From the IMG/VR virus record IMGVR_UViG_3300047470_000520: a stretch of DNA of 62,326 bases; one strand, given 5' to 3'. The translations under genes and the position numbers were made by a program. Below the pieces are notes generated by a model. That model ran no database searches. It had not been told where the DNA came from and worked only from the letters and a program-made list of their open reading frames with translations. Below are positions 994 to 61,846 of this stretch, piece by piece. Source of the DNA: a virus (taxonomy: Duplodnaviria > Heunggongvirae > Uroviricota > Caudoviricetes). Within the stretch, counting starts at the first letter, position 1; every line of letters starts with the position of its first letter.

Positions 994-1383
994 ATGAGCT
1001 CAGAACCGAAGAAATTTTCATTCAACCTAAACTTCAAGGGCGATGTCGATCCCAGTCAGCTCTTCTATATTCGTGGGTTTGCAGAGGCAAGCACGCCTGA
1101 AGAAGCCATCTTGAATTTAGCGCAAATACTGGATGGTACTCGCCACTACAAGCAGTTAGGCGGCAAGGGCTACACGCTGGATTCATTAGCCCTGGTTAGC
1201 ACAGGTAGAAAGCGAGTCATCAGCTTTAAGGCCCACGTGGAAATGACAAAGGTGAGTGTGAACTGGGGTACTGCTCGTTATGATTTTGTCGAGACTGCGT
1301 TTTGGGATGCTCTCATGAAGACCTTCCCTGAGCAGACGCAAATTTTTAAAGGCAAGATTCTGGAAGAAGCAATGGGTCTTTGA
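994..1383 (+). CDS. Family A hypothetical protein with C-terminal LEEAMGL
   Basis: 129 aa; shares A.T.EEAI.NLA.IL and AL...FPEQ..IFKGK.LEE with five neighbours. Confidence 0.85.
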   Translation: MSSEPKKFSFNLNFKGDVDPSQLFYIRGFAEASTPEEAILNLAQILDGTRHYKQLGGKGYTLDSLALVSTGRKRVISFKAHVEMTKVSVNWGTARYDFVETAFWDALMKTFPEQTQIFKGKILEEAMGL

Positions 1384-1410
1384 CGCTGACATTACAATTG
1401 GGGATGCCGT

Positions 1411-1845
1411 ATGGCACATGAACAGAAGAGATTTGGTTACAACCTGGTCTTTTGCGAGCAGAGCAAAGGCCAGAATGCCGCATGGAAATATTTTGGAAGT
1501 TTTGCTGCTGCCGACACGGCTGAGGAAGCAATTGAAAATTTGGCCAAGATATTGAGCGGTTCGACGTCCTTAAAGCAGCAGTTCGAGGAAGGCTCCAATG
1601 CCATATTGACCAAGTTCGAACTGGAAAGTGATGGCAAAAAATTGCTTAGCTTTAATGTGGGACTTGGCGATCCGGGCAAGATGGCATGGTTATTCTTGGG
1701 TCATGGTGGAATGCTTGGTGATCCGTGGAAACGCATCGTTTTCGATAATGTAAATAGAGATCTTTTGGATGCGTTGGTGAAGAACTTTCCAGCGCAGAAG
1801 CAGTTTTTCAAAGGCAAGGCGCTAGAAGAATCTCTTGGGCTTTGA
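1411..1845 (+). CDS. Family A hypothetical protein (LEESLGL)
   Basis: 144 aa tandem paralog. Confidence 0.85.
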   Translation: MAHEQKRFGYNLVFCEQSKGQNAAWKYFGSFAAADTAEEAIENLAKILSGSTSLKQQFEEGSNAILTKFELESDGKKLLSFNVGLGDPGKMAWLFLGHGGMLGDPWKRIVFDNVNRDLLDALVKNFPAQKQFFKGKALEESLGL

Positions 1846-1869
1846 TAATTAAATAATAACGGGTGCATT

Positions 1870-2274
1870 ATGAAACAAGATGATGTGAACTTTTCATTCA
1901 AACTTATGTTCAAGCAGACGTATGAAGGAAACTCTACTCGGTTTGGCGCTATTTCAAAATTTGCTACTGCGAAAACAGTTGATGAAGCTATCGGTAATTT
2001 GGCGAAAATTTTGAATGGTTCAATTCCTTACCAAAGTGACAAGGATTACGTGGTAGGTGACAAATTGCTTTCGATTGATTTGTTTGGGCCGAGCAGGAGA
2101 ATAGTGCTCGGATTTGAGGGTGTTGATGAGACGAAAAATGGCGTAATCGTTAACTGGAGCAGGGCCAGATATAAAGACGTTAACAGGGAGATGTTCGCCG
2201 CGCTGATGGAACACTTTCCGGAACAGAAGCAATTTTTCAAAGGCAAGGAACTGGAAGACGCTATGGGCCTTTGA
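1870..2274 (+). CDS. Family A hypothetical protein (LEDAMGL)
   Basis: 134 aa tandem paralog. Confidence 0.85.
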   Translation: MKQDDVNFSFKLMFKQTYEGNSTRFGAISKFATAKTVDEAIGNLAKILNGSIPYQSDKDYVVGDKLLSIDLFGPSRRIVLGFEGVDETKNGVIVNWSRARYKDVNREMFAALMEHFPEQKQFFKGKELEDAMGL

Positions 2275-2303
2275 CCCAATAACATTCACTTAAGGCCACC
2301 GGC

Positions 2304-2738
2304 ATGAAAGAAGCGAAAAGGAGGTTTGGGTACAAAATAGTTTTCCATGATCGGAACAAAGACATGACGATCAACTGGTATAACTTTCCAGATTTTGCGC
2401 CTGCAGACACGGCGGAGGAGGCGATTGAGAACTTGGCAGGGATTCTCGATAAGTCGATACCCTTTGAGCAATTGATTGAGGAAGGCAGCAAGGCAAAATT
2501 AACCAGGATCGAGCTGTTCGAAGGCGATAAGAAGCTGTTCAGAATTAATGGTATTAATGATGCAGAAAGTATTAGGAAAACGCCAGGTTTTAACATCAAA
2601 GACAATGTGCATGTGATGTGGAGGTATATGGTGTTTGATGATGTAAGTCGGGATGTTCTAGACGCCTTGTTGGTGACCTTTCCAGAGCAGAAACAGATCT
2701 TCAAGGGTAAGTTCCTTGAAAATGCCATGGGGCTTTGA
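2304..2738 (+). CDS. Family A hypothetical protein (LENAMGL)
   Basis: 144 aa tandem paralog. Confidence 0.85.
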   Translation: MKEAKRRFGYKIVFHDRNKDMTINWYNFPDFAPADTAEEAIENLAGILDKSIPFEQLIEEGSKAKLTRIELFEGDKKLFRINGINDAESIRKTPGFNIKDNVHVMWRYMVFDDVSRDVLDALLVTFPEQKQIFKGKFLENAMGL

Positions 2739-2759
2739 GCATCAGAAGGAGTTACGGTT

Positions 2760-3188
2760 TTGGAGCAAGAGATGAAGTTTGGATACAAAATGAGCTTCTG
2801 CGAACAGGTCGACAAAACAAAGATGCAAATGCATCATTTCTCGGGTTTTGCTCCTGCGCAAACGGCTTCCGAAGCGGTGGCCCATTTGGCAAACCTGCTC
2901 AACGGCACTTTGCCATTCAAGCACCTTCTTGAAAAAGGTTGCGTGGCCAGATTGACCAAAATTGATTTATTCGGCGGGGACAGTCTGATTTTCAGACTTC
3001 ATGCGCTCGAGGGATCTGTAAATTTGGCGGGTATTCCATGGTGGAAGAAGAGTACGCTCGAAGTGCATTGGGGATGGATGGATTTCGACAATGTCGACAG
3101 GGAAATGCTGGACGCTTTGGTGGCGACCTTTCCAGAGCAGCAGCGGATTTTTAAGGGGAAATTTCTTGAAGAAGCACTGGGTCTTTGA
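2760..3188 (+). CDS. Family A hypothetical protein (LEEALGL)
   Basis: 142 aa tandem paralog, GGAG RBS upstream. Confidence 0.85.
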   Translation: MEQEMKFGYKMSFCEQVDKTKMQMHHFSGFAPAQTASEAVAHLANLLNGTLPFKHLLEKGCVARLTKIDLFGGDSLIFRLHALEGSVNLAGIPWWKKSTLEVHWGWMDFDNVDREMLDALVATFPEQQRIFKGKFLEEALGL

Positions 3189-3221
3189 CGGAAAGCCGGC
3201 TCAGCTATCGCGAGGAGTATC

Positions 3222-3584
3222 ATGCAGCAAGAAAAAAATCAGTTCGTGATCAGGGCATTGATCTTCAGGGAGCACTCTGGATATGAGGACGTTCTTTCCT
3301 CACCGACACTGGGTGATGTACTAGAAAAATTCTCGGACATGATCAAAAAACAGAGCACGTACCATTCGTTGGGTGCGGAGATATTTGGCTTTGAGCTGCA
3401 CGGAAATGGAAAGCACTTGATGGATTTTCATGCTTCTCATAAAGGTCGCAAGGTAGAGATCACCTGGAAAGATACGGAGTTTCACATCGTGGATCACCGG
3501 CTGCTCAATGCTCTAAGCACAACCTTTCCAGAGCAAGCAGGACTGCTGAAAAGTAAGGCGCTCGAGGAAAGCCTCGGTCTATGA
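3222..3584 (+). CDS. Family A divergent member (LEESLGL)
   Basis: 120 aa; retains LLNALSTTFPEQ...KSKALEESLGL; GAGGAG RBS. Confidence 0.8.
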   Translation: MQQEKNQFVIRALIFREHSGYEDVLSSPTLGDVLEKFSDMIKKQSTYHSLGAEIFGFELHGNGKHLMDFHASHKGRKVEITWKDTEFHIVDHRLLNALSTTFPEQAGLLKSKALEESLGL

Positions 3585-3608: not shown

Positions 3609-4730
3609 CTACAGGCCCAAAGCATCCTCAAGGTCATGAACCTTAGACCATTGCAGCCCTAACGCCTTCTCAACCCTGTACAGCGCCTCACGGAAGTCTT
3701 TCTGTGACACGGGTGGCGGTGTGTCTATCAGCGATTCCAGCCTGGCTACGTTAGCGAGGATTTTGTCCTTTTCGGAATCGAACGTATTGATCGAGCGCAG
3801 GGCGTACTTCTTCATACCCTGAATGTATGTAGCATCCGCTCCCATTTGATCCAGGTTCCATTTGAGCTTGGTGGTCACGCCTTTGCTGGCGATCACTTCG
3901 GCATGCGCAACCGGGTCAGAAAACAGGTAGATGTCTACACGCCAATTTCCAGCTGCATATTCATCATCTTTGAAGCACAGCGAAGCCTTGGCGATGGCCT
4001 GGTCAAGCGTCGGCGCACCCCCAATAAGGTAACGAGCATTGAGTGCGGTGAGCACGATGTCGATGCGGTACTGCTGGTGAAACCGATCATCCCTCAGCCA
4101 TTTCTGCTTTACGTCACTGAAGTGGTAGGTATCACCGTTTTTTGACCGGGTTTGGAATTCCTCTCTGACGCTGTCCGGCAGGGTTATCGCCGGGCCGGTG
4201 GTTTCGAGCAGGTCTTGAAGGCAAGCATCGTGAACATTCAAGAAGTATTGAAGGAGGGCTTCCTGCTGGTCGGGGGCTGAATCGTTGTAGAGGGTGGCGA
4301 CTTTTGCCCACTGAATGTTCTTGGTCGTATAAGCATGGAACATCAGGTAGGTCTGCAGTTGGTCGCTGGTATAAGGCCCGCAGTCATTTTCCTCATCTAC
4401 GACAAAGCTTGATGCCTTTCGGAAGGCGAGCGCCTCAAGGTCGGCTTTTGTCCTGATGTCAGTGTCATAGAGGTTTGGCTTGAGCAGTGCGGTAATGCCC
4501 TCGAAGGTCTTATCACTCATGGCCAGGATTGGCGCCATATGCTCATTGCGGACACTCGCAGGAAAATCGAAGTAGTCACTGGCCATCTGGTTGTATGAGT
4601 CGACGTCAGGCGCCATGGCCTCGCCGGTAGCGTCAGTGAACCCGGCAAAGTCCTTGTGGAACATTACGTTGATAAAGGGGTAGTCATTGAGGCTGGGTGG
4701 CTTCAGGATGGCAGGGCGCAGGGCGGTCAT
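3609..4730 (-). CDS. Family B hypothetical protein (WSKVHDLEDALGL)
   Basis: 373 aa; PPSL..YPFI N-terminus and W..VATLYNDSAPDQQEA core. Confidence 0.9.
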   Translation of the reverse strand: MTALRPAILKPPSLNDYPFINVMFHKDFAGFTDATGEAMAPDVDSYNQMASDYFDFPASVRNEHMAPILAMSDKTFEGITALLKPNLYDTDIRTKADLEALAFRKASSFVVDEENDCGPYTSDQLQTYLMFHAYTTKNIQWAKVATLYNDSAPDQQEALLQYFLNVHDACLQDLLETTGPAITLPDSVREEFQTRSKNGDTYHFSDVKQKWLRDDRFHQQYRIDIVLTALNARYLIGGAPTLDQAIAKASLCFKDDEYAAGNWRVDIYLFSDPVAHAEVIASKGVTTKLKWNLDQMGADATYIQGMKKYALRSINTFDSEKDKILANVARLESLIDTPPPVSQKDFREALYRVEKALGLQWSKVHDLEDALGL

Positions 4731-4903: not shown

Positions 4904-5935
4904 CTATAGACCCAGGGCATCCTCGAGCTTGCTGACCTTGCTCCAGGACACACCAAATTCCTTTTCTGCGGCGAACAGGGCTTTCTCCAAACGTTCTTTG
5001 AGGGCCGGCGAGCCGGTTTTTTCAGTGTTCCACTGAAGCTTGATAGGGAGCTCTGGCTTGAACTCGCCAATCATCGAGTTGTACCTGCCATTGACCTCCG
5101 CCGAGGCAAAGCCATTACCTTCATGCCCGATAGACACCGACTGAATGGTCTTAGCGTTAGGGTCAAGGGCAAAGCGTGTCGCGTAAGCAACGGCCTCTTC
5201 CATCGTTCTGGCGGTTGCAATGGGGTATTGAGCGCCGCCATTTTTCCGTTCGAAACCAGTCACAGTGAAATTCAGGATCATGTTCGAGTCCTTAACAAAC
5301 CTTCCCCTCAAATCATCGTAGGTGCACGGTTTGCCATCAATCATCTTGGATTCCAGTACGGGCACCAGGTTTGCGGGTAAAGGCTCTGGCCCCTTCATCT
5401 CCAGCAGGTCTTCAAGCGAACGATTCAGGCAGCGGATGAAGAATTGGTGGATGGCTTCTTGTTGGTCAGGAGCGGATTCGTTGTAAAGGTCAACGACATG
5501 CCTCCAATCAACGTAGATTTCTCCTTTGGCGTGGTACAGCAAGTACGCCTGTGTTTGTTCAAGGCTCGCGCCATCAATGGCCGGCTGCCAGTCATCCTCG
5601 TTTACATCTGGATCTTCAGTCGTAGCGGCGACGACGAGGTCATCCCTGGTTTTTATATCAACGCCATTAATCTCGTAGCCAAAGCTGCCAATGAGCGCTC
5701 CAAACGTCGCATCGCTCATCGCGGCCAGCGGGGCCGTGTGCTCTGGATTGATTGAAGATGCCGGGTAGAAATGCTGATCACCGTATACCTCGTCATCAAA
5801 GTTCCACTCTTCCTCGGACTTACCGTAAGGAATCTGCACGTCTCCTTCAAATTTTCGGGAGTCATACAGCATGTAATTGATGTATTGGTAAGCGCTCAAT
5901 AGCGGCGGGGTGAGCTTGGCAGGTCTAGGCATCAT
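4904..5935 (-). CDS. Family B hypothetical protein (WSKVSKLEDALGL)
   Basis: ORF track gives 4904..5989; start moved to MMPRPAKLTPP (5935) to match paralog N-termini. Confidence 0.9.
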   Translation of the reverse strand: MMPRPAKLTPPLLSAYQYINYMLYDSRKFEGDVQIPYGKSEEEWNFDDEVYGDQHFYPASSINPEHTAPLAAMSDATFGALIGSFGYEINGVDIKTRDDLVVAATTEDPDVNEDDWQPAIDGASLEQTQAYLLYHAKGEIYVDWRHVVDLYNESAPDQQEAIHQFFIRCLNRSLEDLLEMKGPEPLPANLVPVLESKMIDGKPCTYDDLRGRFVKDSNMILNFTVTGFERKNGGAQYPIATARTMEEAVAYATRFALDPNAKTIQSVSIGHEGNGFASAEVNGRYNSMIGEFKPELPIKLQWNTEKTGSPALKERLEKALFAAEKEFGVSWSKVSKLEDALGL

Positions 5936-6209
5936 GAAATCCTTGGTAGTGCATAGCCCATTATCCGTCTGGAGACGAAGTGGCGACAACGCTTCGCTAT
6001 GGCTTAATGCACAGAACCGCGCCCAGGTGCTGTGCCGCGATGAAGGAGGGATGTGTAGCGGACATTTGCCATCGCTTGGGATGGCTGATGGTTACCTGTA
6101 TGACAGCCGCCTGCTCGACAACCAGTAGGGCTTTAGCAGCAAGCCAGATTTCCATTTAAATCTACTCATTGCTACCATTTTTTGGATAAAAACAAGAATT
6201 GGTATTGAT

Positions 6210-6803
6210 ATGCAACATGTTTCGATTGGCCAGGCGAGCGAATTATTGGGCGTTGCGGTTTCCACACTGCGCCGGTGGGAACGGGAGGGTCGCTTGCGAC
6301 CCTCTTTTCGCACTTGCGGTGGTCATCGCCGCTACTCGATGATGGATCTGAATAAAGTCGCCGGCAAGGCGCTCTCCGATGAGCGAAAAGTCGTGGCCTA
6401 CGCCAGAGTCTCTTCTCACGGTCAAAAAGATGATCTGGAACGCCAGCGCGACCGCCTGGAACAGCACTGCAAGGCGGTTGGCTATGCCAACCTCGAGCTG
6501 CTGACCGACCTCGGCAGTGGCCTGAATTACCAGAAAAAGTCGTTCCGAAAGCTGCTTAAAATGATTGCGCTGGGTCAGGTCTCGACTTTGGTGCTGATGC
6601 ACAAAGACCGCTTGCTGCGCTTTGGCGCGGACATCATTTTCGACCTGTGTAAACTCAATCAAACCGAGGTGGTGATTCTCGAAGAACCCGCCTCAACAAC
6701 CATTGAAAATCGCCTGGTGGCCGATGTCATTGAATTAATGACCGTGTTTTCCGCACGATTATATGGCGCCCGCTCTCATAAGCACCGAAAACTCGCTGCA
6801 TAA
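6210..6803 (+). CDS. tnpA: IS607-family transposase TnpA (MerR-like HTH + serine recombinase)
   Basis: N-terminal SIGQASELLGVAVSTLRRWE...GGHRRY; catalytic YARVSS, DLGSGLN, DRLLRFG; C-terminal FSARLYG.RS. Confidence 0.95.
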   Translation: MQHVSIGQASELLGVAVSTLRRWEREGRLRPSFRTCGGHRRYSMMDLNKVAGKALSDERKVVAYARVSSHGQKDDLERQRDRLEQHCKAVGYANLELLTDLGSGLNYQKKSFRKLLKMIALGQVSTLVLMHKDRLLRFGADIIFDLCKLNQTEVVILEEPASTTIENRLVADVIELMTVFSARLYGARSHKHRKLAA

Positions 6804-6806
6804 TGC

Positions 6807-9507: not shown

Positions 9508-10527
9508 TTACAGACCCAACTCATCTTCAAGCTTCTGTGCCTTGTACCATTGCAGGCCAAGCTCTTTCTCTACGTCCAGAAGCGCTTCAGTAAACGCATC
9601 TTTGATCAGACCGCTATGCAGAGAGACTCTTTGGCTTTTGAGGCAGTATTCGCCGACGCTACTGATGCTCCAGACCAGCTTCATCGCAGATTGATGGCCT
9701 TTGATTTCGGCGATCTTGGCAAAGGCCAGGCGCTGACCGTTAACGGACATGCGGATGGCGATATGTTCTTTATTATGGCTGACGGTCTGAGCAAAGAGGG
9801 AGGCTTTCGCAATGGCAATGGCCAGGGTAGGGGCGCTGCCGACCAGACTGAGGCTTCCGTCCTGAAGAACACTTTTGATCACAAACTCCTGGTGGAACAG
9901 ATCATTACGCACCCAAGTCTGCTTAATGTCACTGAAGCAATAAGTCTGGCCATTCTCGACTCTGCTGAGGAATTTACTCTGGACGCTGTCTGGGATCGTG
10001 AAGCTGGGCGCCTGGATACTCAGCAGATTGACCAGGGAGCGATTCTTGAAGTGCTTGAAGTAGTCGCTGATCGATTGCTGCTGGCCAGGCGTGGAGGCGT
10101 TGTAGAGATCAGCCACTTGTCCCCAGTGGATGTTTTCGTCCACGTTTAGGCTGTGCAGCAGATAGGCTTCGAGCTGATCGGCCCGAAATTTCTCGCCGGT
10201 GTACAGGTCATAGTCCCTGGCGGCCAGTTTAGATAAATCGGATTTGCCGGTGACGGCGGTGAAGTTGTGATAGCTCAGCTTAAGGATACTGAAAAGGTCG
10301 ACGAAGGTGCTGTCATGCATCCCGGCCAGCGTTCCTGATTGAGCGATCTTGATTTTGCCAGGTGATGGGAAGTGTTTTGCCTCGAAGCCGGCGTCATCCG
10401 TTTCGTCGGGCCACTCTCTATCGCTGATGTGCTCAATGGCGATGTTGGTAGCGAGAAACTTGGCCGTGATGAACGGGTACGCGTCCAGGCTCGGCGGGGC
10501 GATGTGAGTTGGCAGCGTATCGGTCAT
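9508..10527 (-). CDS. Family B hypothetical protein (WYKAQKLEDELGL)
   Basis: 339 aa; closest by eye to 11733..12764. Confidence 0.9.
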   Translation of the reverse strand: MTDTLPTHIAPPSLDAYPFITAKFLATNIAIEHISDREWPDETDDAGFEAKHFPSPGKIKIAQSGTLAGMHDSTFVDLFSILKLSYHNFTAVTGKSDLSKLAARDYDLYTGEKFRADQLEAYLLHSLNVDENIHWGQVADLYNASTPGQQQSISDYFKHFKNRSLVNLLSIQAPSFTIPDSVQSKFLSRVENGQTYCFSDIKQTWVRNDLFHQEFVIKSVLQDGSLSLVGSAPTLAIAIAKASLFAQTVSHNKEHIAIRMSVNGQRLAFAKIAEIKGHQSAMKLVWSISSVGEYCLKSQRVSLHSGLIKDAFTEALLDVEKELGLQWYKAQKLEDELGL

Positions 10528-10584: not shown

Positions 10585-11721
10585 CTACAAGCCAAGCTCA
10601 TCCTCAAGCTTGAATGCCTTACTCCACTGCAGGCCCATGGCCTTCTCGGTGGCAAACAGTGTTTTGATGAACTCGTTCCTTGAGATGCACGAGGGGGAAC
10701 GTGGGTTGAAATCCACCAGAGGCTTAAAACTCGTGGGATAACGAAGCGGTTTAGCCTGCTGATCTTGTGCCGAGGTTGTTTTATTCGGTTCCCAGGCCGA
10801 GTCATCCAGGTTCCAGCGAATCTTGCCTGGAGCCTTTATGTCTGAGGCAGAGGTCGGGGCTCTCAAGCGAGGCCCCGTATGAAACTCCCCGCCAGCCACG
10901 TAGTTACCACCTAGGAGCACGTCGAACGCATTCATGTTAATGGTCATGTTGAAGCCTTGCGCGAAGATCGATATTTTCGCGATGGCCTGGGCCAGCGTGG
11001 CTGCGGTAGCGATTAAGGAAGGTCTTTTGAAGAGGTGGTGAAATCCTTCAATTCGATATTGGTGATGAAAAATATCTTCACGCAGCCACTCCTGTTGCGG
11101 CTCGCTGAACAGCAGCACCTCGCCATGTTCGACCTTGCTATCGAACGTTTGTGTCAGGCTGGTCGGCAATTCGAACGTTGGCCCAGGGATTTTCATCAAC
11201 CTTTCCAGTGTGCGGTTTCTAACCTTGGAAAAATAACCGCAAATAGCTTCTTGCTGGTAAGGCGTTGATTCGTTGTAAAGGCTCGCCAGTAGTCCCCAAT
11301 GAATGTTTTTCGCCAGCGTCGAGTGATGCAGAAACGTGGTTTGTCTGGAAGCATTCTGGTGCCTTACTTTGTCATACCACCTGTCTTTTTCACCTGCGAG
11401 GGCAACCAGATCAGCCTTGGTGCGATAGGTTTCACCGGTCGAGAGCTCGGGCTTTAAGATGACGAACAACCGCTCAAACGTCTTATCGTTCATCGAGAGC
11501 AATGGCGCAATCCGATCTCTACGGATAATAACCGGCTCAGTGAAATAATGGGCAGTGAAAGCCTTATCTGAATACGGCTGTTCTAAATCCGTCTCGTTCC
11601 ACAAATGCCTGATGCCGATGTCATAGCGATGAAACAGGATGTCGATGAAGGGGTACGCCTCGAGCGACGGCGGAGCAAAGTAGTTGGGTATTTCGGTAGT
11701 CATCAGCAATTCCGAGTTCAT
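10585..11721 (-). CDS. Family B hypothetical protein (WSKAFKLEDELGL)
   Basis: 378 aa; closest by eye to 12806..13879. Confidence 0.9.
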   Translation of the reverse strand: MNSELLMTTEIPNYFAPPSLEAYPFIDILFHRYDIGIRHLWNETDLEQPYSDKAFTAHYFTEPVIIRRDRIAPLLSMNDKTFERLFVILKPELSTGETYRTKADLVALAGEKDRWYDKVRHQNASRQTTFLHHSTLAKNIHWGLLASLYNESTPYQQEAICGYFSKVRNRTLERLMKIPGPTFELPTSLTQTFDSKVEHGEVLLFSEPQQEWLREDIFHHQYRIEGFHHLFKRPSLIATAATLAQAIAKISIFAQGFNMTINMNAFDVLLGGNYVAGGEFHTGPRLRAPTSASDIKAPGKIRWNLDDSAWEPNKTTSAQDQQAKPLRYPTSFKPLVDFNPRSPSCISRNEFIKTLFATEKAMGLQWSKAFKLEDELGL

Positions 11722-19599: not shown

Positions 19600-19645
19600 C
19601 TTTGATCCTTTTCCTTCAATTGTCGTCAAACCGCCTGCGGTGCCT

Positions 19646-22895: not shown

Positions 22896-22962
22896 GGGAT
22901 TGTCTTCGATCAATGAAAGATTTTTTACATTATTGACAATGAGTGCAGGAGGCCACAAACAG

Positions 22963-54960: not shown

Positions 54961-56547
54961 ATGAGTATTCTTCAGTACGACAATTTCAATGACTGGGATG
55001 GGTTTAGAGAGCTCAACCTGGCCTGCATGCGCCTTAAGGATGACGACAGCAAGCTCAGGGCTCTGGTGGCGGAGGTGCCAGAAGATCTTCGTCAGGAGGC
55101 TTCGCTCTACCTGCTGGACTACTCGATGACCCAGCAATCAGCCATCCTGCTCAAGCTCGCGACCGAGCTGGGCGTTTTTGATATTCCAGGGGTGAAGAAC
55201 AACCTGGAAATCGCGATGACCCTGCGCGACCGCATGTTCACCACCACTGAAGAGCCCAGTGCCGGGCACCTTGAGATTCTTCGTCAGTCAGCTGAACTCT
55301 TTGGTGAGGGGTTTGCCATCGATTCCATCTCAGCGGTCTATAACGACGAGTTTGCCAGGCAGCGGGCGGGCGCGAGATCGTTTGCTAACGGAAAGGAGAA
55401 GCTGGACGCCTATTCGGCGAATTTGAAGCTGTTCGTCAGTTTCACTGCTCCAAAAATTCTGGCAAATCCCGATATCGGTAACATCGGTATTCGACATATC
55501 CGCTCACAGATTATGAATTTTAGGGAAGGCGACCCTATTGGCAACCACCTCAAGCAGTTGGGTGAAACGCTGCACTTTGATGATTTCGTGGCGATAGCCA
55601 ATGTCATGACAGAGCAGCCGTTCAATTTTGGACAACACATGCTGCGTCAGATCGATGCCGGTGTTTGCCAGGGCCTGCCAAGGCTGTCGCTCGATTACCT
55701 GCAAAACCTTCCGCTTGCCCTTAAGGTCAGGCCGATGAATACATTGATGAGCCTGGTCACCATGAAAGAATCGGAGTTCAGCCGATTTGTGTCAGGTGAC
55801 GGCCTTTTTCATTACCTGACGTCCAGCTGGATCACGAAAAACAACGCAGAGATTCTGAAGGATCAGAATTTCCTGGATCTTCATGATTTGTTCAACCAGC
55901 GGCTGCTCGCCAGCGCCTATCTGCCAGGTGCCTTAGTGCGTCACGAAGGTCTTGAGCGGCCTAGAACTGTGTCGGTGACGCTGGCGATGATGCTCCCACA
56001 GCTCAAGGAAAAGGGTGTGCGGATCGACCTCAGCAATGAATACGGGATGTTGACGTTTGCACAAAGCCTGGCCCTGATGAAAGGTGATCCAAAGCATGCC
56101 GAGGTGGTTCGATACAGTCATGAGGCCATTGCCGACACATTGGTACGTGATGCCGTCTCGCTCTATGCGCGGATGCTCAATGCTGACCATTTGAAAAAGC
56201 ACATGAAGCCGCTTGAGCTGACGGACAAGGATGAGCGCTTCAAGCTGGTCGCTGTGCGCCTTTGTGCCGAGCTTCACCAGCCACGTGCTGCCCATACAAG
56301 GGCGGAGTTGGACAGGCTTAAGCCTATCAGTCAGCTTTATGGAGAGACCATCAAAGGCCTGAACCACAAGGACGCTTTGCTGGCGTTGGTTGAAACCTAC
56401 GATGAAGCCACCATCTTGGGCGCCCTGAAGGGTTACAAGCCCGGCATCAAGCCGCTGATCGAGCTGGGCGTTCTGGATAGAAAGCATATGGCCCTGCTGC
56501 CGGCGAAGGATCGCGGTGACATGCTTGAGAGCGCCATGGGTCTTTAA
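54961..56547 (+). CDS. Family C hypothetical protein (RGDMLESAMGL)
   Basis: Start MSILQYDNF (54961) matches paralog MSIFKYDNF. Confidence 0.9.
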   Translation: MSILQYDNFNDWDGFRELNLACMRLKDDDSKLRALVAEVPEDLRQEASLYLLDYSMTQQSAILLKLATELGVFDIPGVKNNLEIAMTLRDRMFTTTEEPSAGHLEILRQSAELFGEGFAIDSISAVYNDEFARQRAGARSFANGKEKLDAYSANLKLFVSFTAPKILANPDIGNIGIRHIRSQIMNFREGDPIGNHLKQLGETLHFDDFVAIANVMTEQPFNFGQHMLRQIDAGVCQGLPRLSLDYLQNLPLALKVRPMNTLMSLVTMKESEFSRFVSGDGLFHYLTSSWITKNNAEILKDQNFLDLHDLFNQRLLASAYLPGALVRHEGLERPRTVSVTLAMMLPQLKEKGVRIDLSNEYGMLTFAQSLALMKGDPKHAEVVRYSHEAIADTLVRDAVSLYARMLNADHLKKHMKPLELTDKDERFKLVAVRLCAELHQPRAAHTRAELDRLKPISQLYGETIKGLNHKDALLALVETYDEATILGALKGYKPGIKPLIELGVLDRKHMALLPAKDRGDMLESAMGL

Positions 56548-56624: not shown

Positions 56625-58250
56625 ATGAGTATTTTCAAGTACGATAATTTCAAGCAGTGGGAACGGTTCTCTGAGATGCCAAAAGGCATCAACCGTTACT
56701 GTGGCGCGACGAAAGATGACACCTTCATCCGAGCGACCATGGCCGAGCTGCCTGAACACCTGGCCGATGAGGCTGGTGTCTATCTGCTTGCGTTTGCCAT
56801 TGGCCGCCTGTCCAAGCCATTACTCGCCTTTGTCACTGAACTGGGTGTTATGGATCGCCCTTCGGTGAAGAACAGCCTGGACGTGGCGCTTTTGATCCGT
56901 GACACGATGTTCTCAAAGCAATCAAAATCTGAGTTTGCTGATAGCCCGTACCTCGAGATCCTAAAACAGACGGCTGAAATCTATGGGGCGGCCTTTGCCG
57001 TCGATTCCATGGAGGCGGTCTACAATGATGAATTCGCCATGGAGCGTACTGGCGCCAGCTTTTTTGCCAATGGCGCGCAAAAACTCGAGTCCTACAGTGC
57101 GAACCTCAAGCTGTTCATGAGCTTTACGCCTCCCCAATTTTTGGCAAGCCCTGACATTGGCAACATCGGCATAAGAAACATCAGTCACCAGATTGTAAAC
57201 TTCGACAGGAAAGACCCTCTTGTGGAGCACCTTGAGATACTCGGCCAGCTGAGTTTCGATGATCTCTCGTCGATTACAAAAGTGATCAAAGACGATTCGC
57301 TCGGCAGGAGTGCCTTCATTGGGCGTCAGATCGACGCGGCAGTCTGCAAAGACCTGCCAGATATGAAATCAGGGTTTGTCTACAACCTGCCCTTTGCCCT
57401 TGAGGCCAGGCCGATGAACACCCTCATGACGTTGATCGCCATGAACGAGTTAGAGCTCAGCCGGTTTATCTCATCAGGCTCAATGGAGAGCTACCTGACC
57501 AGTAAGTGGATTCATGCGGGCAACGCGCACACTATGGAGGATCAAAACTTCCTCATTCTGCATGACCTGTTCAATCAGCGGCTATTAGCCAATCCATTTT
57601 TCGAGAGGGTGTTTCAGCGCACGGAGTCCTTGTACAAACCCAGTTTCGTCTCCGTCACGATGGCCTTCCTGTCTCAGGCGATCAAAGAGAAGGGGTTGGC
57701 GGTCGAAATGGTCAAAGCCCCCGGTGGCTCCAAGAACGTTTCATCCGGTGTACTCAAGAGCTTTGCAGAGGGTCTTGGATTGATAGCCAAGCATGCCAGG
57801 GAGCCGGAGGTTGTTCAGGCCGGGCATGCCATGGTGACGTCTCAGCTGCGCATTAACCTGATCAACCTCTATGTGTCCATGGCCAATGATGAGGACGTCG
57901 GTAAAAAGCTGAAGAAGCCGGACGCCGTAGATGTTGACTATCAGTTCAAGTTCATGGCGGTTCGCTTATGTGCTGAGTTGCACCAGCCCAACCAGAACTA
58001 CACCAGCTCAGCGCTGGCTAAGATCAAGCCAATTGGTAATTTTGTCAGCGACATGGCTGGCCTGAACCACAGAGAAGCCTTGCTTATGCTGGTCTCGACC
58101 TACGATGAGGAGACCATCCTTGATGCATTGAAGGACTACAAGCCAGGCATTAAGCCGATGATTGAGCTGGGCGTGTTGAGTCAGAAACACATAAAGCTGT
58201 TGCCGGCGAAAGAGCGCGGCGAGATGCTTGAAACGGCGATGGGGCTTTGA
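56625..58250 (+). CDS. Family C hypothetical protein (RGEMLETAMGL)
   Basis: 541 aa, collinear with 54961..56547 throughout. Confidence 0.9.
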   Translation: MSIFKYDNFKQWERFSEMPKGINRYCGATKDDTFIRATMAELPEHLADEAGVYLLAFAIGRLSKPLLAFVTELGVMDRPSVKNSLDVALLIRDTMFSKQSKSEFADSPYLEILKQTAEIYGAAFAVDSMEAVYNDEFAMERTGASFFANGAQKLESYSANLKLFMSFTPPQFLASPDIGNIGIRNISHQIVNFDRKDPLVEHLEILGQLSFDDLSSITKVIKDDSLGRSAFIGRQIDAAVCKDLPDMKSGFVYNLPFALEARPMNTLMTLIAMNELELSRFISSGSMESYLTSKWIHAGNAHTMEDQNFLILHDLFNQRLLANPFFERVFQRTESLYKPSFVSVTMAFLSQAIKEKGLAVEMVKAPGGSKNVSSGVLKSFAEGLGLIAKHAREPEVVQAGHAMVTSQLRINLINLYVSMANDEDVGKKLKKPDAVDVDYQFKFMAVRLCAELHQPNQNYTSSALAKIKPIGNFVSDMAGLNHREALLMLVSTYDEETILDALKDYKPGIKPMIELGVLSQKHIKLLPAKERGEMLETAMGL

Positions 58251-59167
58251 TCATGACGCTTGATGAACTGGTTGCGAAGCTGAAATACAACGCTTCGGGA
58301 TTCGAATTTGCCAAGAATATAGAGCCGGTGATGTTTTCGGACATTGCGCCTGAGTATCGTAGTAGCAGGGTTATCCAGTTATGGTTGGAGACCCCCGGGT
58401 CTTCGATAGGCGATATCCCCAAAGACCTTTTGAACGACGACATTCGCCGGTTCGCGGTAAGCCAGTCGCTCCAGGGAAAAACAACCAATCAATTTCCCAT
58501 GGCCTTTATCAAAAAAGAAGACACCGATCACTACGAAGAGATTGCGCTGTTGGCGATCAAAAACTCGGGGTACAACATGGTTTTCGTTGACCAGTCCCTT
58601 CATGGCGAAGCTTTTTTCCTCAAGGCGCTCGAGGCCAACTCCAAGGCATTGGTTCAGTTTGTGGACGGCTACAAGGGCCAGGTCGGTAAAATAGACTGGA
58701 CGGAGGCGCTTATCGACTCGGCAGTGTCCAAAGATGTGACTTACCTGATGGTGATGGACAGCTCGTTGATAAAAATGGAATGCGTAGAAAAGATGATTCA
58801 GGGGTACACCACTCCGTTGAGTCAGCTGGTCAATATTGGCTTGCTTCCCGTCATGTCAACGATGATTGGTAACGGTCTATGGTGGTCTTCGAGTGTGCCA
58901 AAGCCTTCCTCCCTTGCGGATTGCCTGGATACCTTGGCAACCTCGCTATACGTGCCGGCCTTGCAAGATCAAAGCATCCTGCTCAAGGCCTATGCCGGTA
59001 GCTTCCCGGCAGAGACAGTAATGCCATTGCTGAACCAGCCTGGCCGCGAAGGTCTGATCTTTGAGTTGTACACCTATGATGAGCTAATGGCTCAGCTAAA
59101 AGGTGGGCTGCTCAATGAGCACCAGCAGATCAAAGGGCGGCTGCTTGAAGAGGAGATGGGGCTATGA
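58247..59167 (+). CDS. Family D helical hypothetical protein (KGRLLEEEMGL)
   Basis: 306 aa; IKKEDT..YEEIAL motif; ATGA overlap. Confidence 0.9.
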   Translation: MIMTLDELVAKLKYNASGFEFAKNIEPVMFSDIAPEYRSSRVIQLWLETPGSSIGDIPKDLLNDDIRRFAVSQSLQGKTTNQFPMAFIKKEDTDHYEEIALLAIKNSGYNMVFVDQSLHGEAFFLKALEANSKALVQFVDGYKGQVGKIDWTEALIDSAVSKDVTYLMVMDSSLIKMECVEKMIQGYTTPLSQLVNIGLLPVMSTMIGNGLWWSSSVPKPSSLADCLDTLATSLYVPALQDQSILLKAYAGSFPAETVMPLLNQPGREGLIFELYTYDELMAQLKGGLLNEHQQIKGRLLEEEMGL

Positions 59168-60054
59168 TGACTCGAGATCGCTTGCTCCAGCGGATAGCTT
59201 TGGGCAAATACCAAAATTTCTCTGAAATCGGTAAAAAGCATCTTGATTCAGAGGTGGCCTTGGCCTGGCTTAAAACAGGTTTAGGCAGTCTCCGAGAGAT
59301 CCCTTTGCACCTGGTCACTGATGAGTTGCGAATAGAAGCCATGACCGGCAAAAGCACCACCGGGGCTCATGGTGGACTGTCACCGCACTCCCTGAGCAGC
59401 ATCAAGCCCTCGCACACAGAGCGCTACGAAGAAATCGCGTTGCTTGGCATTAAGACCAGTGAGCGCAACATATTCGTTGTGGATCATGACGTTCTCAACA
59501 ACGATTTCATGAAAAAAGCCCTGCAGGTGAACGGCAATGCCTTGCTGCCACTGCTGGATGAAGACGCCAACCCAGAAGCAATGGGCATGGCGATCACACA
59601 GGAACTGATTGAACTGGCCGTTTCCCGCAGCGCCAGCTACTTCGGCCACCTCAAAAAGGATCAGTACAGCCAGCAAGCGGTGCGTGAGTGCATTCAGAAC
59701 GTCAAAATGGTTCCGAAGGATTTTCAAAGCCTGACGGATGCCGGCCACTTTGATGTCTTGGTCGAAGTGATAAAAACTGGCTGGTGGGGCGATCATCTTC
59801 CTGAAAAACCTTCCAACCTTTCGGATTGCGCCGTCAAGTTGCTGGTCAGCCCCGAAGATAAGTTCGTGTACCGCGCCTACGCCATGACTTACCCGATAAG
59901 GGATGTGATTGCCTTCTTTGCAGGGCCTACGCTCAGGCAGGAGCTGTTGCAGATGTATTCCAGGGCAGAGCTTGCGCCGCATCTGAAGGAAGGCCCCCTG
60001 AGCGAAGACAGGGCCTTTAAGGGGCGGTTACTGGAAAGCGAGCTCGGTCTATGA
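59164..60054 (+). CDS. Family D protein (KGRLLESELGL)
   Basis: 296 aa; ATGA overlap. Confidence 0.9.
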   Translation: MMTRDRLLQRIALGKYQNFSEIGKKHLDSEVALAWLKTGLGSLREIPLHLVTDELRIEAMTGKSTTGAHGGLSPHSLSSIKPSHTERYEEIALLGIKTSERNIFVVDHDVLNNDFMKKALQVNGNALLPLLDEDANPEAMGMAITQELIELAVSRSASYFGHLKKDQYSQQAVRECIQNVKMVPKDFQSLTDAGHFDVLVEVIKTGWWGDHLPEKPSNLSDCAVKLLVSPEDKFVYRAYAMTYPIRDVIAFFAGPTLRQELLQMYSRAELAPHLKEGPLSEDRAFKGRLLESELGL

Positions 60055-60938
60055 ACAATTTCGATGAAATGACACGCGATCAATTTCTAGTAGCGTTAAG
60101 AGCAGACGACGCCTGTAAATTCATTGAGATCCCAACGACCTACCTGGACAGTGAGGTCATTGCAACCTGGCTTGAGTTCCATGGGGAGCTCCATCAAGTT
60201 CCGAAGCAATACGTCGACGATGAGCATCGAAGGTTCGCAGTGGGCCGAAGTCATGACCACCAACTGGTCAGGGATTACCCGCTCGCGGTCATCAAAAAAG
60301 AAGACACTGAATGCTACGAGGAATTGGTGCTCATTGCCCTTGCCCAGTGTTATCTGAACATGACGCACGTCGACCGGCGCCTGTATAGCGAAGCATTCTT
60401 CCTGAAAGCGCTGGAAGTGAATCGCATGGCGTTGATCATGTTCCTGACCGGATCGCCAGACAAACCGAGAATCGACTGGACGCAGGCCATGATCGATTCA
60501 GCCGTCATCAAGGATTTTCGGTACTTGCCGTATTTCCCGAAAGAACAGATCAGGAAGGAATGCCTGGAGCGACTGATCACCGGTGGCGAACACTCTGCGG
60601 CAGATCTTGAAAAGTATGGGCTACTCGACCTCATGAGTGACCTGATGCGCGGCGGCTACTGGCCTTATGGGATGAACAAACCGTCCTCTCTGGTCGAAGC
60701 CATTGACCTTCTGCGTCAAAATCACCCTTCAGCGGAAAATCTGGAGGTTTATTACAGGGCCTTCATACGCTCACAGCCGATGGAGACCGTGCTGCCGTTG
60801 ATGACATCGCCTGATCTTCAATCTCTGATGCTCCAGGTGTACTCAACCGAAGAACTGACGCCGCACCTGCGCACTGGCCTGCTCAAAGTTGCATCCAAAG
60901 TAAGAGGGCATCTGCTTGAGGAAGGACTTGGGCTATGA
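60051..60938 (+). CDS. Family D protein (RGHLLEEGLGL)
   Basis: 295 aa; ATGA overlap. Confidence 0.9.
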   Translation: MNNFDEMTRDQFLVALRADDACKFIEIPTTYLDSEVIATWLEFHGELHQVPKQYVDDEHRRFAVGRSHDHQLVRDYPLAVIKKEDTECYEELVLIALAQCYLNMTHVDRRLYSEAFFLKALEVNRMALIMFLTGSPDKPRIDWTQAMIDSAVIKDFRYLPYFPKEQIRKECLERLITGGEHSAADLEKYGLLDLMSDLMRGGYWPYGMNKPSSLVEAIDLLRQNHPSAENLEVYYRAFIRSQPMETVLPLMTSPDLQSLMLQVYSTEELTPHLRTGLLKVASKVRGHLLEEGLGL

Positions 60939-61846
60939 CGTTTGAAGAAGTCACGAACGGCATTCGAATTGGGAAAATCACAAAATTCTCGGATATCCCC
61001 GAGCACCGTTTGAGCGCGAATGTAGCGCATCTATGGGTGGATCACGGTAGGGGTACGTTGGGGGAAATACCGCTTAAATTTATTGATGATGGTGTTCGGT
61101 TCGCGGCGATGTCGCCGATGGCGAATCATGTCCACATGAGAAACTTCATCACTGCGTCTTTCGCCGCAATTGATCCGCGCCACACAGCTCGCTATGAAGA
61201 GCTTGCATTGCGTGGTATCGGGCGGACACAGAGTGTGATGCAGGAGGTCAATGAAGCCTTCTTGACAAAATCCTTCTTGATGAAGGCCATTAGTGAAAAT
61301 TCCTCAGTGCTATTTCCGTTTCTTCATGAATCACCAAGGTCAAAAAAAGGTGAAATTGTCAACGGATTGATCGACCAGGAAGTTGTTGATTTTGCACTCT
61401 CGCGAGAAAGAGTGTACTTAAACTCTTTTGATAATCAACAATTTACAGATGATTCAATCAGGACTTGCATACGCAGCCACAATTCTCTCGATTATCAAGA
61501 TCTGGTCGGCCTCGGTCGCTACCACGTCTTGATTGATATGGTCAGGGAGGGCTTTTGGCCTACTGGAAGATCTCTAAGACCTGAGAGTCTGGAAATTGGA
61601 ATTCAGAATCTCACGCCGATAAAAAATAACCTTCTTCTGCCAGCACAAGACCACCTTCTTCATCGTGCGTACGTTCTCCAGCACACAATCCAAGAGGTGA
61701 TTGCGCAGATGAATACACCTGACCGGAAGAAAATGCTCTTGGATCTGTATTCAGCAGATGAGCTGACGCCTTATCTGAAAACAACACACCTTGGTCATGA
61801 CAGGGCTTTTAAAGGACATCTGCTTGAAGAGGGACTTGGGTTATGA
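60935..61846 (+). CDS. Family D protein (KGHLLEEGLGL)
   Basis: 303 aa; ATGA overlap. Confidence 0.9.
   Translation: MTFEEVTNGIRIGKITKFSDIPEHRLSANVAHLWVDHGRGTLGEIPLKFIDDGVRFAAMSPMANHVHMRNFITASFAAIDPRHTARYEELALRGIGRTQSVMQEVNEAFLTKSFLMKAISENSSVLFPFLHESPRSKKGEIVNGLIDQEVVDFALSRERVYLNSFDNQQFTDDSIRTCIRSHNSLDYQDLVGLGRYHVLIDMVREGFWPTGRSLRPESLEIGIQNLTPIKNNLLLPAQDHLLHRAYVLQHTIQEVIAQMNTPDRKKMLLDLYSADELTPYLKTTHLGHDRAFKGHLLEEGLGL

Follow-up and report, generated by a model that had tools for sequence, protein, structure and literature searches.

A dialect-forming C-terminal tag on numerous orphan proteins of Pseudomonas-type megaplasmids is a candidate docking signal for a plasmid-encoded machine

Introduction

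Why would dozens of proteins encoded on one piece of DNA, with bodies that differ in size and sequence, end in nearly the same residues? The question is raised by a stretch of 62,326 nucleotides (hereafter the window) that belongs, with pMPPla107, to a clade of Pseudomonas-type megaplasmids ~1 Mb in size. A first inspection of its letters, the sequence-only reading, had picked out 27 genes of four families (A to D) with a common C-terminal motif and had suggested that a plasmid-encoded machine or partner recognises it. Here we examine how far the motif extends, what carries it and what may read it.

Results

Twenty-seven genes of the window encode the same C-terminal tail

In a six-frame census the window yielded 291 ORFs with a length of 60 aa or more, and L-E-x-x-[LM]-G-[LM]-stop closes exactly 27 of these. 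The census confirmed the 27 genes of the sequence-only reading at the coordinates given below and found the motif on none of the other ORFs, as that reading had stated. The residues that it had described were correct but the length of seven was not: the shared motif spans 11 residues with a basic residue fixed at -11, giving the consensus [KR](-11)-x3-L(-7)-E-[DE]-x-[LM](-3)-G-[LM](-1)-COOH. All 27 tails have K/R at -11, L at -7, E at -6, G at -2 and L/M at both -3 and -1, and 22 of the 27 have D/E at -5. Back-translated into DNA, L-E-[DE]-x-L-G-L-stop gave a pattern that matched 18 times in the window versus 0 times in 100 dinucleotide-preserving shuffles. The 15 B and four D genes reported earlier are all present but do not complete their families, since tblastn revealed two additional members cut by the window edges, a 16th B gene and a fifth D gene. 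The genes are as follows.

Family A
994..1383, plus strand: gene 1, 129 aa, tail KGKILEEAMGL
1411..1845, plus strand: gene 2, 144 aa, tail KGKALEESLGL
1870..2274, plus strand: gene 3, 134 aa, tail KGKELEDAMGL
2304..2738, plus strand: gene 4, 144 aa, tail KGKFLENAMGL
2760..3188, plus strand: gene 5, 142 aa, tail KGKFLEEALGL
3222..3584, plus strand: gene 6, 120 aa, most diverged A member, tail KSKALEESLGL

Family B
1..867, minus strand: 16th gene, cut by the left edge, C-terminus outside the window (tblastn with B1, E 7e-46)
3609..4730, minus strand: 373 aa, tail KVHDLEDALGL
4904..5989, minus strand: 361 aa, tail KVSKLEDALGL
9508..10527, minus strand: 339 aa, tail KAQKLEDELGL
10585..11721, minus strand: 378 aa, tail KAFKLEDELGL
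11733..12764, minus strand: 343 aa, tail KVQKLEDELGL; B member used for the structure model
12806..13879, minus strand: 357 aa, tail KVRKLEDELGL
13876..15060, minus strand: 394 aa, tail KARLLEDALGL; 4-nt overlap with the next gene
15057..16211, minus strand: 384 aa, tail KVHMLEDALGL
16236..17354, minus strand: 372 aa, tail KVLMLEDALGL
17469..18494, minus strand: 341 aa, tail KVQKLEDELGL
18559..19668, minus strand: diverged member, 369 aa, tail KGRYLEESLGL, the KG form as in A and D
19646..20719, minus strand: 357 aa, tail KAFHLEDALGL
20800..21828, minus strand: 342 aa, tail KVHHLEDGLGM
21918..23072, minus strand: mechanical ORF of 384 aa, tail KVYHLEDALGL; its N-terminal ~50 aa overlap the next gene, so the true start is probably further downstream
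22963..23967, minus strand: 334 aa, tail KVRDLEGALGL

Families C and D
54961..56547, plus strand: C gene 1, 528 aa when started at M46 in the ORF opening at 54826, tail RGDMLESAMGL
56625..58250, plus strand: C gene 2, 541 aa, tail RGEMLETAMGL; its model is an all-alpha solenoid
58247..59167, plus strand: D gene 1, 306 aa, tail KGRLLEEEMGL; weak DUF4116 match
59164..60054, plus strand: D gene 2, 296 aa, tail KGRLLESELGL; 4-nt overlaps with its neighbours
60051..60938, plus strand: D gene 3, 295 aa, tail RGHLLEEGLGL
60935..61846, plus strand: D gene 4, 303 aa, tail KGHLLEEGLGL
61875..62324, plus strand: fifth D gene, cut by the right edge (tblastn with D1, E 1.5e-27)

For C gene 1 the earlier choice of 54961 as start, instead of 54826 where the mechanical ORF begins, is most likely right.

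The tail is carried on diverged bodies of differing fold

The tagged proteins are soluble and acidic, and neither a signal peptide nor a transmembrane segment was found in the 27. Paralogues share only 22-54% identity, and the tag is far better conserved than the bodies. Family C comprises just 18 clusters among 1.84 billion representatives, and the tail is kept in every full-length cluster, down to ~20% body identity. The possibility that all the families are one homologous fold, raised by the sequence-only reading itself, was examined with AlphaFold. The family B model combines helices with a beta-sheet domain (mixed alpha/beta, pLDDT 85) and the family C model consists of 34 helices and zero strands (pLDDT 88), so more than one fold is present among the bodies. 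The solenoids of families C and D are ARM/HEAT- or DUF4116-like, and peptide binding is typical of this class. The modelled tail is an amphipathic helix at the very end of the protein that closes with G-L, with the basic -11 and the hydrophobic -7 and -3 residues on the same helical face. The confidence of this helix is fairly high (pLDDT 81-88 in B, 85 in C), which suggests that the tail may pack against the body and not be free.

Profile comparison of D, C and B found only the last ~14 columns in common, and among body-only profiles of 13 multi-member clusters 2 of 78 pairs reached 90% hhalign probability. Some BLAST-level clusters do merge by profile (cl0/cl2/cl3, cl5/cl11 and possibly A with B). 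With tails included, hhalign matched family A to the final ~100 residues of B (90% probability), a value that fell to 5.7% after removal of the last 15 residues. Judged by these profiles, A and B are perhaps not independent. A could be the B C-terminal domain standing by itself, so that the earlier description of "four unrelated families" was slightly overstated. A modular tag under its own constraint, on bodies of differing fold, is supported.

The tag has lineage-specific dialects

The tag is widespread on pMPPla107: among the 1851 ORFs there that reach 100 aa, LGL closes 152 and [DENQ][LIM]G[LIM] closes 166. These 166 fall into ~98 BLAST clusters, the tag consensus is R(-11) D(-10) xx F/L/M(-7) G/A/S(-6) x D L G L, and the DLGL-stop DNA pattern has 154 matches versus 6 in the control. 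On such megaplasmids the tag stands at the end of about one protein in six. The window's LE[DE]xLGL form was absent on pMPPla107, pPL1 and the FeN3W plasmid and is retained on related metagenome contigs of 0.95-1.28 Mb. The FeN3W plasmid has a looser form, K-[KR]-xx-[IVL]-S-x-[DE]-[FLM]-x-[LI]. Homologues of family B on pMPPla107 end in ...GVDLGL and ...GADLGL, the pPL1 homologue of family D ends in FGQDLGL, and family C members have LE..MGL, ..DLGL or ..EELGI tails. In nine BLAST pairs of tagged proteins between pMPPla107 and the FeN3W plasmid, most exchange DLGL for the D-F/L-x-L/I form. By these comparisons each megaplasmid lineage has its own tail dialect, with orthologous bodies changing dialect with the plasmid. 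That orthologous B, C and D bodies take the dialect of their plasmid favours a plasmid-encoded reader evolving together with the tag and speaks against a host partner that is conserved, which strengthens the earlier idea of such a reader. We found no published description of the tag in the literature, and LE[DE]xLGL is the local dialect of this wider, apparently unpublished tag.

The tagged bodies are orphan and fast-evolving. None of 20 sampled pMPPla107 tail proteins had a Pfam match, and a plasmid with a 64%-identical DotM carried homologues of only 9 of the 166 tagged ORFs. Such very fast turnover is the pattern expected of an arms-race arsenal. Many tagged proteins of pMPPla107-type megaplasmids are alpha-solenoids in tandem, often translationally coupled arrays.

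The tagged lineage encodes a type IVB system

The sequence-only reading had also suggested looking for a T4SS, above all a Dot/Icm-like type IVB system, alongside the tag, and a clear DotL and DotM were indeed found in the lineage. pMPPla107 encodes DotL (phmmer against PDB 6SZ9 IcmO/DotL, E 4.7e-151), with DotM directly upstream (PF23127, E 2e-34), together with DotA, B, C, D, G, H, I and O-like genes and a type IVb pilus. The same DotM is present on >1 Mb contigs of the LE-dialect lineage. The tag is absent from backbone and conjugation-machinery proteins, and a RecD-like helicase, perhaps a relaxosome component, has another, SSB-like tip. Homologues of IcmS, IcmW and LvgA were not identified on the plasmids. 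Tag and T4BSS occur together in the pMPPla107 clade but not everywhere: Vibrio plasmids of ~0.9 Mb have 141 backbone genes in common with pMPPla107, including the ParM-DotM-DotL synteny and the T4BSS, yet they have neither a common C-terminal motif nor homologues of any of the tagged proteins. The tag is therefore no requirement of the machine, and the co-occurrence, confined to one plasmid clade, is not phylogenetically independent. Effector secretion by this T4SS was called unknown in 2011 (PMC3136466).

Discussion

What reads the tail, if anything does? Conservation at the level of nucleic acid, whether as a Shine-Dalgarno or coupling element for translation of the following array gene, as a terminator or for recombination, could be imagined from the 4-nt overlaps (ATGA) of several array genes and the GAGGA often spelled by the L-E-D codons. 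However, in the 27 tails Leu at -1 is written with six different codons, Gly at -2 with three, and each of the three stops is used, and such synonymous variation at invariant positions indicates that selection acts on the protein; the tag is also found on singleton genes and before spacers of 20-170 nt, and GAGGA is absent from the sister dialects. The codon data refute this reading for practical purposes. A degron or ligand of a conserved host hub (ClpXP/ClpAP, Lon, Prc via PDZ, the beta clamp), which would hold ~100 costly plasmid proteins at low level or tether them, is very unlikely. The last three residues do fit the class II PDZ ligand pattern, hydrophobic-x-hydrophobic-COOH, Prc/Tsp reads non-polar C-termini, and E. 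coli Pol IV ends in QLVLGL. Yet host hubs such as the clamp and ClpX are highly conserved within Pseudomonas and the tail differs systematically by plasmid lineage, so that the host degron proposed earlier as an alternative fits the dialect shifts poorly; moreover, the tails lack the ssrA-type LAA end. No PDZ_2 domain, S41 protease, ClpP or encapsulin shell was found on the three Pseudomonas megaplasmids. pMPPla107 is reported to function in several Pseudomonas species (PMC4105467, PMC8544880). The beta clamp, another earlier alternative, fails by sequence. Pol IV and ssrA degrons resemble the tag in lying at the extreme C-terminus and ending in L-G-L or small hydrophobic residues, respectively, but the clamp-binding motif QL[SD]LF needs Q followed by an invariant Leu, where the tails have E followed by D/E.

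Two further readings were considered. As a C-terminal capping helix of one ancient, hyper-diverged superfamily, serving folding or self-association with no reader, the tail would lie in a confident terminal helix, as AlphaFold places it; the profile-level merging of clusters, the orphan status of all tagged proteins and their similar size classes would also suit it. We regard this as improbable, given that B is alpha/beta and C all-alpha, that a structural helix would not shift jointly across ~100 families between lineages and uniformly per plasmid, and that the motif ends strictly at the stop codon, which points to recognition of the free carboxy terminus. Docking to another plasmid-encoded partner unrelated to type IV secretion is possible, if on balance unlikely. 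The partner could be a scaffold or hub protein, an AAA+ motor, the plasmid SecA paralogue or the solenoids themselves, in which case tails would bind neighbouring solenoids and so form an assembly peculiar to the plasmid. A reader that is plasmid-encoded and co-evolving is needed to account for the dialect co-shifts, which do not specify which one it is; the C and D solenoids are of a class that usually binds peptides; and ~300 ORFs, most of them uncharacterised, are common to pMPPla107 and the FeN3W plasmid and missing from the Vibrio plasmid that lacks the tag. On all three Pseudomonas megaplasmids dotL has a complete SecA paralogue within a few kb (PF07517, E 1e-81 to 1e-87), and the paralogue is likewise on the LE-dialect contigs, but it is also on the tag-less Vibrio plasmid (36% identity), and SecA is not known to recognise signals at the C-terminus.

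Modules of comparable use are known. Many proteins plug into one receptor by a common C-terminal element in dockerin-cohesin pairs and class II PDZ ligands, but the plasmids yielded no cohesin-like or PDZ reader and the tagged proteins are cytoplasmic. In type IVA systems XVIPCD (Xanthomonadales X-Tfe) and BID (Bartonella Beps) are, like the tag, single conserved C-terminal modules on many unrelated proteins and address one T4SS coupling protein; they are folded domains of about 100-120 residues, whereas the tag is an 11-residue peptide. The adaptors IcmS, IcmW and LvgA, which sit on the DotL tail, read helical motifs of Dot/Icm effectors (PMC7251119). Such motifs may take the form F-x3-L-x3-K and, like the tag with K(-11), L(-7) and L(-3), would be short and helical, one basic and two hydrophobic residues being placed at i, i+4 and i+8, but the tag has the reverse residue order and must end at a free C-terminus.

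The effector signals of Legionella and Coxiella Dot/Icm likewise lie within the terminal ~20 residues of soluble proteins that are otherwise unrelated, with hydrophobic residues at -7, -3 and -1 and acidic residues close by (PMC5802825). Their computed optimum ends ...SSLLSSLKL, with Leu at -7, -6, -3 and -1; the terminal Leu of the synthetic signal is essential, its change to Glu abolishing transport, and DotM, which reads these signals in part, has been proposed to co-evolve its binding surface with differing tails in other species (PMC5802825). In both cases the proteins number in the hundreds (10-15% of coding capacity) and the replicon lineage also encodes the DotL-DotM coupling complex. 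Unlike these signals, the tag lacks the Glu-rich E-block at -10 to -17, positions that are basic or neutral in the window tails, and it is a rigid 11-residue consensus instead of a statistical bias. No described T4SS signal comes close to the rigidity of the window motif. The tag is on a conjugative megaplasmid of environmental and plant-associated Pseudomonas, whereas Dot/Icm effectors are encoded on the chromosome of an intracellular pathogen. The tagged proteins also have no eukaryote-like or recognisable enzymatic domains, unlike known effector sets.

Taken as an address or docking tag, which we consider likely, the tail would be read by a plasmid-encoded receptor that probably co-evolves with it. 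The type IVB coupling complex DotL-DotM, or an adaptor bound to it, is our tentative candidate for that reader. The lack of a signal peptide or transmembrane segment, the orphan bodies and the rapid turnover support reading the tagged proteins as substrates. The short modular tag would dock them to one plasmid-encoded machine, most plausibly the DotL-DotM complex within the type IVB (Dot/Icm, I-type) system that the plasmid carries, or an adaptor of this complex, which would hand them to the channel for delivery into recipient or target cells, either together with conjugating DNA or independently of it.

A shared C-terminal tag ends 27 proteins of the window

A six-frame census of the window found that L-E-x-x-[LM]-G-[LM]-stop ends exactly 27 of the 291 ORFs of at least 60 aa, and the 27 tagged ORFs listed by the sequence-only reading were all recovered where it had placed them. 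They fall into four families, A to D, two of which also have a gene cut by the window edge:

994-3584, + strand: family A, six tag-ended genes
3609-23967, - strand: family B, 15 tag-ended genes
54961-61846, + strand: families C (two tag-ended genes) and D (four tag-ended genes)
1-867: a 16th family B gene, cut by the window edge
61875-62324: a fifth family D gene, cut by the window edge

The motif as first described exists on these ORFs but is too short, because an invariant K/R at -11 extends the element, so that the conserved motif spans residues -11 to -1 in 27/27 proteins. All 27 tails have K/R at -11, L at -7, E at -6 and G at -2, with either L or M at -3 and at -1. K/R, G/V, W/F and S occupy positions -9 to -13, and acidic residues are found only at -6, at -5 and sometimes at -4. 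The back-translated tail pattern matched the window DNA 18 times, against 0 matches in 100 shuffles. These positions are written with varying codons: Leu at -1 with six, Gly with three, and the stop with all three. This synonymous freedom indicates that the constraint acts on the peptide and not on DNA or RNA, and rules out a Shine-Dalgarno or other DNA-level signal as the cause of the conservation. All 27 proteins are acidic and soluble-looking, and none of them has a signal peptide or a membrane segment.

Every family B gene has, 13 residues upstream of its tail and within its C-terminal ~25 aa (e.g. 11733-11810), a second element resembling the tail, E-K/R-x-L-G-L/V followed by QWSKV; the B end therefore looks like the LGL motif duplicated in tandem. 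The family B array is split between its second and third complete genes by an IS607-type pair (6210-8494, +), made up of a MerR-HTH serine recombinase (Resolvase E 6.6e-21) and then a 549-aa TnpB-like ORF with a weak Cas12f1-like TNB match. Elsewhere the window encodes an RNA-repair module (33232-38302, +), in which a 365-aa metallophosphoesterase paralogue precedes a 780-aa kinase-phosphoesterase-T4 RNA ligase fusion (RNA_lig_T4_1 E 1.2e-35); a 0.95 Mb relative also has a metallophosphoesterase of this kind, together with a DUF6694 gene, flanking its family B array. A SocA/Panacea antitoxin-domain protein is encoded at 40721-41236 (-) (E 5e-16).

Predicted folds of the tagged proteins

BLAST similarity across families A to D was limited to the last 11-14 residues. 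In profile comparisons the alignment of D with B was confined to the last 14 columns, and C had no aligned region with either B or D. Family A aligned to the C-terminal ~100 residues of B with 90% probability when the tails were included, and with 5.7% probability once the last 15 residues were removed. From these alignments family A may be a stand-alone copy of the C-terminal domain of B, an assignment that is not firm. In the AlphaFold model of family B (pLDDT 85) the N-terminal half is helical and a beta-sheet domain precedes a helical hairpin, and the model of family C (pLDDT 88) has 34 helices and no strand. Judged by these models the window families are not one fold; a single homologous fold with a structurally required last helix is what the sequence-only reading had set against its own proposal. 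Its division into four separate families is slightly overstated in that A is possibly derived from B. The tail forms the final helix of either model (B 331-340, C 528-538), ahead of the G-L end, at pLDDT 81-88.

Fold searches returned no structural neighbour of family B in the PDB, and its AFDB matches were only three uncharacterised clusters, probably relatives. Family C matched, besides its own relatives, only weak ARM/HEAT-like rows. No Pfam family matched A to D except for one sub-threshold DUF4116 (PF13475) match of D1 (17.2 bits against a cut-off of 24.9, E 0.0039), which we treated as a resemblance only and not as an assignment of family D. None of 20 sampled tail proteins of pMPPla107, a related megaplasmid, had a Pfam match. 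When 13 multi-member clusters were compared by hhalign on their bodies only, 2 of the 78 pairs reached 90% probability.

Related megaplasmids carry the tag in their own dialects

The window encodes a Rep3/RepB initiator (49560-50681), whose best matches, at 47-54% identity, are on three ~1 Mb Pseudomonas plasmids:

pMPPla107: 972 kb, MPF type I
pPL1 of P. silesiensis: 1.17 Mb
the plasmid of Pseudomonas sp. FeN3W: 910 kb

The replication neighbourhood (49560-54223) also holds a CNNM/CBS membrane protein and an RNase II/R homologue (RNB E 3.8e-75). The window DNA is of rhizosphere metagenome origin. Megablast found no near-identical record in plasmid and phage collections. Eight metagenome runs, most of them from rhizosphere, match part or all of the window, two of them covering half or more; none of the eight is an RNA run that could give evidence of expression. 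Family B is represented by only 16 clusters among 5.8 billion proteins and family C by only 18 clusters among 1.84 billion representatives. Relatives with the same arrays and the same tail were found on metagenome contigs of 0.95-1.28 Mb. Among GTDB species genomes the family B tail pattern had no match, and the KG..LE..LGL pattern gave six single, chance-level matches in unrelated taxa.

None of pMPPla107, pPL1 and the FeN3W plasmid has the strict motif of the window. On pMPPla107, LGL ends 152 of the 1851 ORFs of at least 100 aa, against 10 for the runner-up tripeptide, and 166 ORFs have a [DENQ][LIM]G[LIM] ending. The tail consensus there is R(-11) D/E(-10) x x F/L/M(-7) G/A/S(-6) x D(-4) L G L. 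These tailed ORFs form about 98 BLAST-level clusters and all lie within 174-939 kb, outside the replication, type IVB secretion (T4BSS) and pilus backbone. As a DNA pattern, DLGL-stop has 154 matches on pMPPla107 against 6 in the control, 61 against 5 on pPL1, and 7 against 9 on the FeN3W plasmid; pBASL58 has an LGL excess too. An ELG[LIM] dialect was ruled out on the three plasmids, where it showed no excess over control. Read over its whole sequence, the FeN3W plasmid has about 59 ORFs with a third and less strict dialect, K-[KR]-x-x-[IVL]-S-x-[DE]-[FLM]-x-[LI]-COOH. The architecture is the same in every dialect: the residue at -11 is basic, those at -7, -3 and -1 are hydrophobic, and one or two acidic residues stand among them.

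Homologous bodies carry different ends on different plasmids. A body-only HMM of family B retrieved two pMPPla107 proteins that end in ...GVDLGL and ...GADLGL, and a pPL1 homologue of family D ends in FGQDLGL. The ends of the 17 full-length family C relatives include MLETAMGL, ILESDMGM, EFSKDLGL, QFGQDLGL and VFREELGI among other forms. In most of nine pMPPla107/FeN3W BLAST pairs a D-F/L-x-L/I form replaces DLGL at the same position. Only 9 of the 166 tagged pMPPla107 ORFs have a BLAST homologue on the FeN3W plasmid (435 for all pMPPla107 ORFs), which points to very fast turnover of the tagged proteins; the DotM proteins of the two plasmids are 64% identical. The tail shifts in concert over ~100 families between plasmids and is uniform within each, as a co-evolving plasmid-encoded receptor predicts, and as neither a conserved host partner (clamp, ClpX, Prc) nor a purely structural helix does. 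The plasmid-encoded reader proposed from the sequence alone gains strength from these orthologous bodies, each bearing the dialect of its own plasmid. We found no published description of the tag in the literature on pMPPla107, DLGL and C-terminal motifs.

The type IVB system and its Vibrio cousins

pMPPla107 encodes a type IVb pilus and a complete type IVB system (DotA/TraY, DotB-like, DotC/TraI, DotD, a DotO-like ATPase, DotG, DotH and DotI), and DotC/TraI is present on all three Pseudomonas megaplasmids. With the Pfam TrwB model, the search for the coupling protein led to RecD-like helicases. DotL and DotM were located by a scan for Walker A and transmembrane segments followed by phmmer against the PDB. 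DotL is an 848-aa ORF (959870-962416; E 4.7e-151 with Legionella IcmO/DotL, PDB 6SZ9), and DotM is the 455-aa ORF upstream of it (PF23127 2e-34; PDB DotM 1.5e-20). Pfam, NCBIfam and the PDB gave no match for ten ORFs neighbouring the T4BSS of pMPPla107. Next to dotM-dotL there are also conserved neighbours of 148/163 aa and 423/431 aa. DotM of the pMPPla107 type forms about 39 clusters, of which P0050 is found with DotL on contigs of more than 1 Mb from the lineage with the dialect of the window, in the order ParM, 148-aa ORF, DotM, DotL. The coupling complex is therefore present in the lineage of the window, and is known from that lineage, not from the window's own replicon.

A few kb away from dotM-dotL, a complete SecA paralogue forms a conserved part of the backbone on all three Pseudomonas megaplasmids, on L135 and on one Vibrio megaplasmid:

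L135 (metagenome contig), 14082-14359
pMPPla107, 954703-957249 (PGAP annotation: DEAD/DEAH helicase)
W02, 397020
W03, 1100017
NZ_CP097357.1, 385723-388389

On a contig with the dialect of the window, an FtsZ/tubulin homologue and an acyl-carrier protein lie between the SecA paralogue and dotL. No backbone protein carries the tag. A RecD-like helicase, possibly relaxosome-associated, ends in an SSB-like ...DDISVPF tip instead. Such helicases are ~790 aa long with an uncharacterised 360-aa N-terminal part (pMPPla107 26614-28992 (-), L079:373-2754, L080:385-2757), the other acidic SSB-like tips being ...EDIEPPF and ...EDIEITF. Another backbone protein (pMPPla107 42839-44332) has a ...DDDLPF end, and the Vibrio plasmid has three DIPF ends.

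Plasmids of 0.88-0.94 Mb from Vibrio parahaemolyticus and V. vulnificus (NZ_CP097357.1, NZ_CP015514.1, CP099927.1) are distant cousins of pMPPla107. One of them (GC 37%), compared whole, has homologues of 141 pMPPla107 ORFs in largely the same order, including the T4BSS, the pilus, a radical-SAM cluster, DNA metabolism genes, ParM-DotM-DotL and the SecA paralogue. Its proteins share no C-terminal motif, none of the tagged proteins has a homologue on it, and neither of the two Vibrio plasmids tested has an LGL-stop excess. About 300 ORFs are common to pMPPla107 and the FeN3W plasmid and missing from the Vibrio plasmids. Every tag-bearing replicon seen has DotL and DotM, but the converse fails, since the Vibrio plasmids have the T4BSS without the tag.

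What reads the tag?

Taken together, the tag is probably an address or docking tag with a plasmid-encoded reader. The sequence-only reading favoured export through the type IV secretion system, and this is still the best single candidate, possible but unproven; correspondingly, we name the type IVB coupling complex as reader only tentatively. The Dot/Icm C-terminal signal occupies the last ~20-35 residues of a substrate, and the window motif lies within this range. Hydrophobic residues at -1 and -3 mark that signal, and by sequence the window tails have L/M at both and L at -7 in 27/27. The computed optimal signal ends in ...SSLLSSLKL, and changing the last Leu to Glu abolishes transport (PMC5802825); its Leu residues at -7, -3 and -1 agree with those of the tag. 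The Glu-rich E-block at about -10 to -17, which defines the Dot/Icm signal, is absent from the window tails. DotM binds acidic C-terminal signals and may co-evolve with different tails in other species (PMC5802825). [quoted passage not shown] Whether the Dot/Icm-like system of pMPPla107 exports proteins was explicitly left open in 2011 (PMC3136466).

Docking on the beta clamp, which had been offered as an alternative on account of the Pol IV end QLVLGL, does not fit the tails. The clamp motif (QL[SD]LF / QLxLxL) needs Gln at position 1 and Leu at position 2, and when aligned on the L-G-L end the tails have E (27/27) at the Gln position and D/E/S/N/G/T at the Leu position. An ssrA-type ClpX degron ends in ...LAA-COOH or Ala-Ala, and all 27 tails end in G-[LM]. 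The tails do show the hydrophobic-x-hydrophobic-COOH pattern of class II PDZ ligands. Among readers encoded on the three Pseudomonas megaplasmids themselves, PDZ_2 (PF13180), S41 peptidase (PF03572) and ClpP were sought and not found. An encapsulin cargo-loading peptide was rejected, as PF04454 has no match on the three megaplasmids and does match control genomes. A reading that we consider unlikely is that tag and reader make up a new system for sorting or assembling proteins, private to the plasmid and separate from type IV secretion. On each megaplasmid the 11-residue C-terminal peptide would then bring over 100 rapidly evolving proteins, solenoids and orphans, to a single hub encoded by the plasmid, which might be a scaffold, an AAA+ motor or a compartment, and every lineage would have its own dialect, read only by its own hub.

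Megaplasmids of the pMPPla107 type have ~1000 genes each, about three quarters of them hypothetical, and a searchable 11-residue tag on roughly one sixth of the genes is a first organising principle for them. The lineage dialects are a natural co-evolution data set for a computational search for the reader. If the reader is the type IVB coupling complex, the tag would be the first defined consensus signal for I-type/Dot-Icm systems outside Legionellales, and the tagged proteins would be an arsenal, over 100 strong, that a conjugative plasmid delivers. With any other reader, the tag would belong to a new protein-sorting system.
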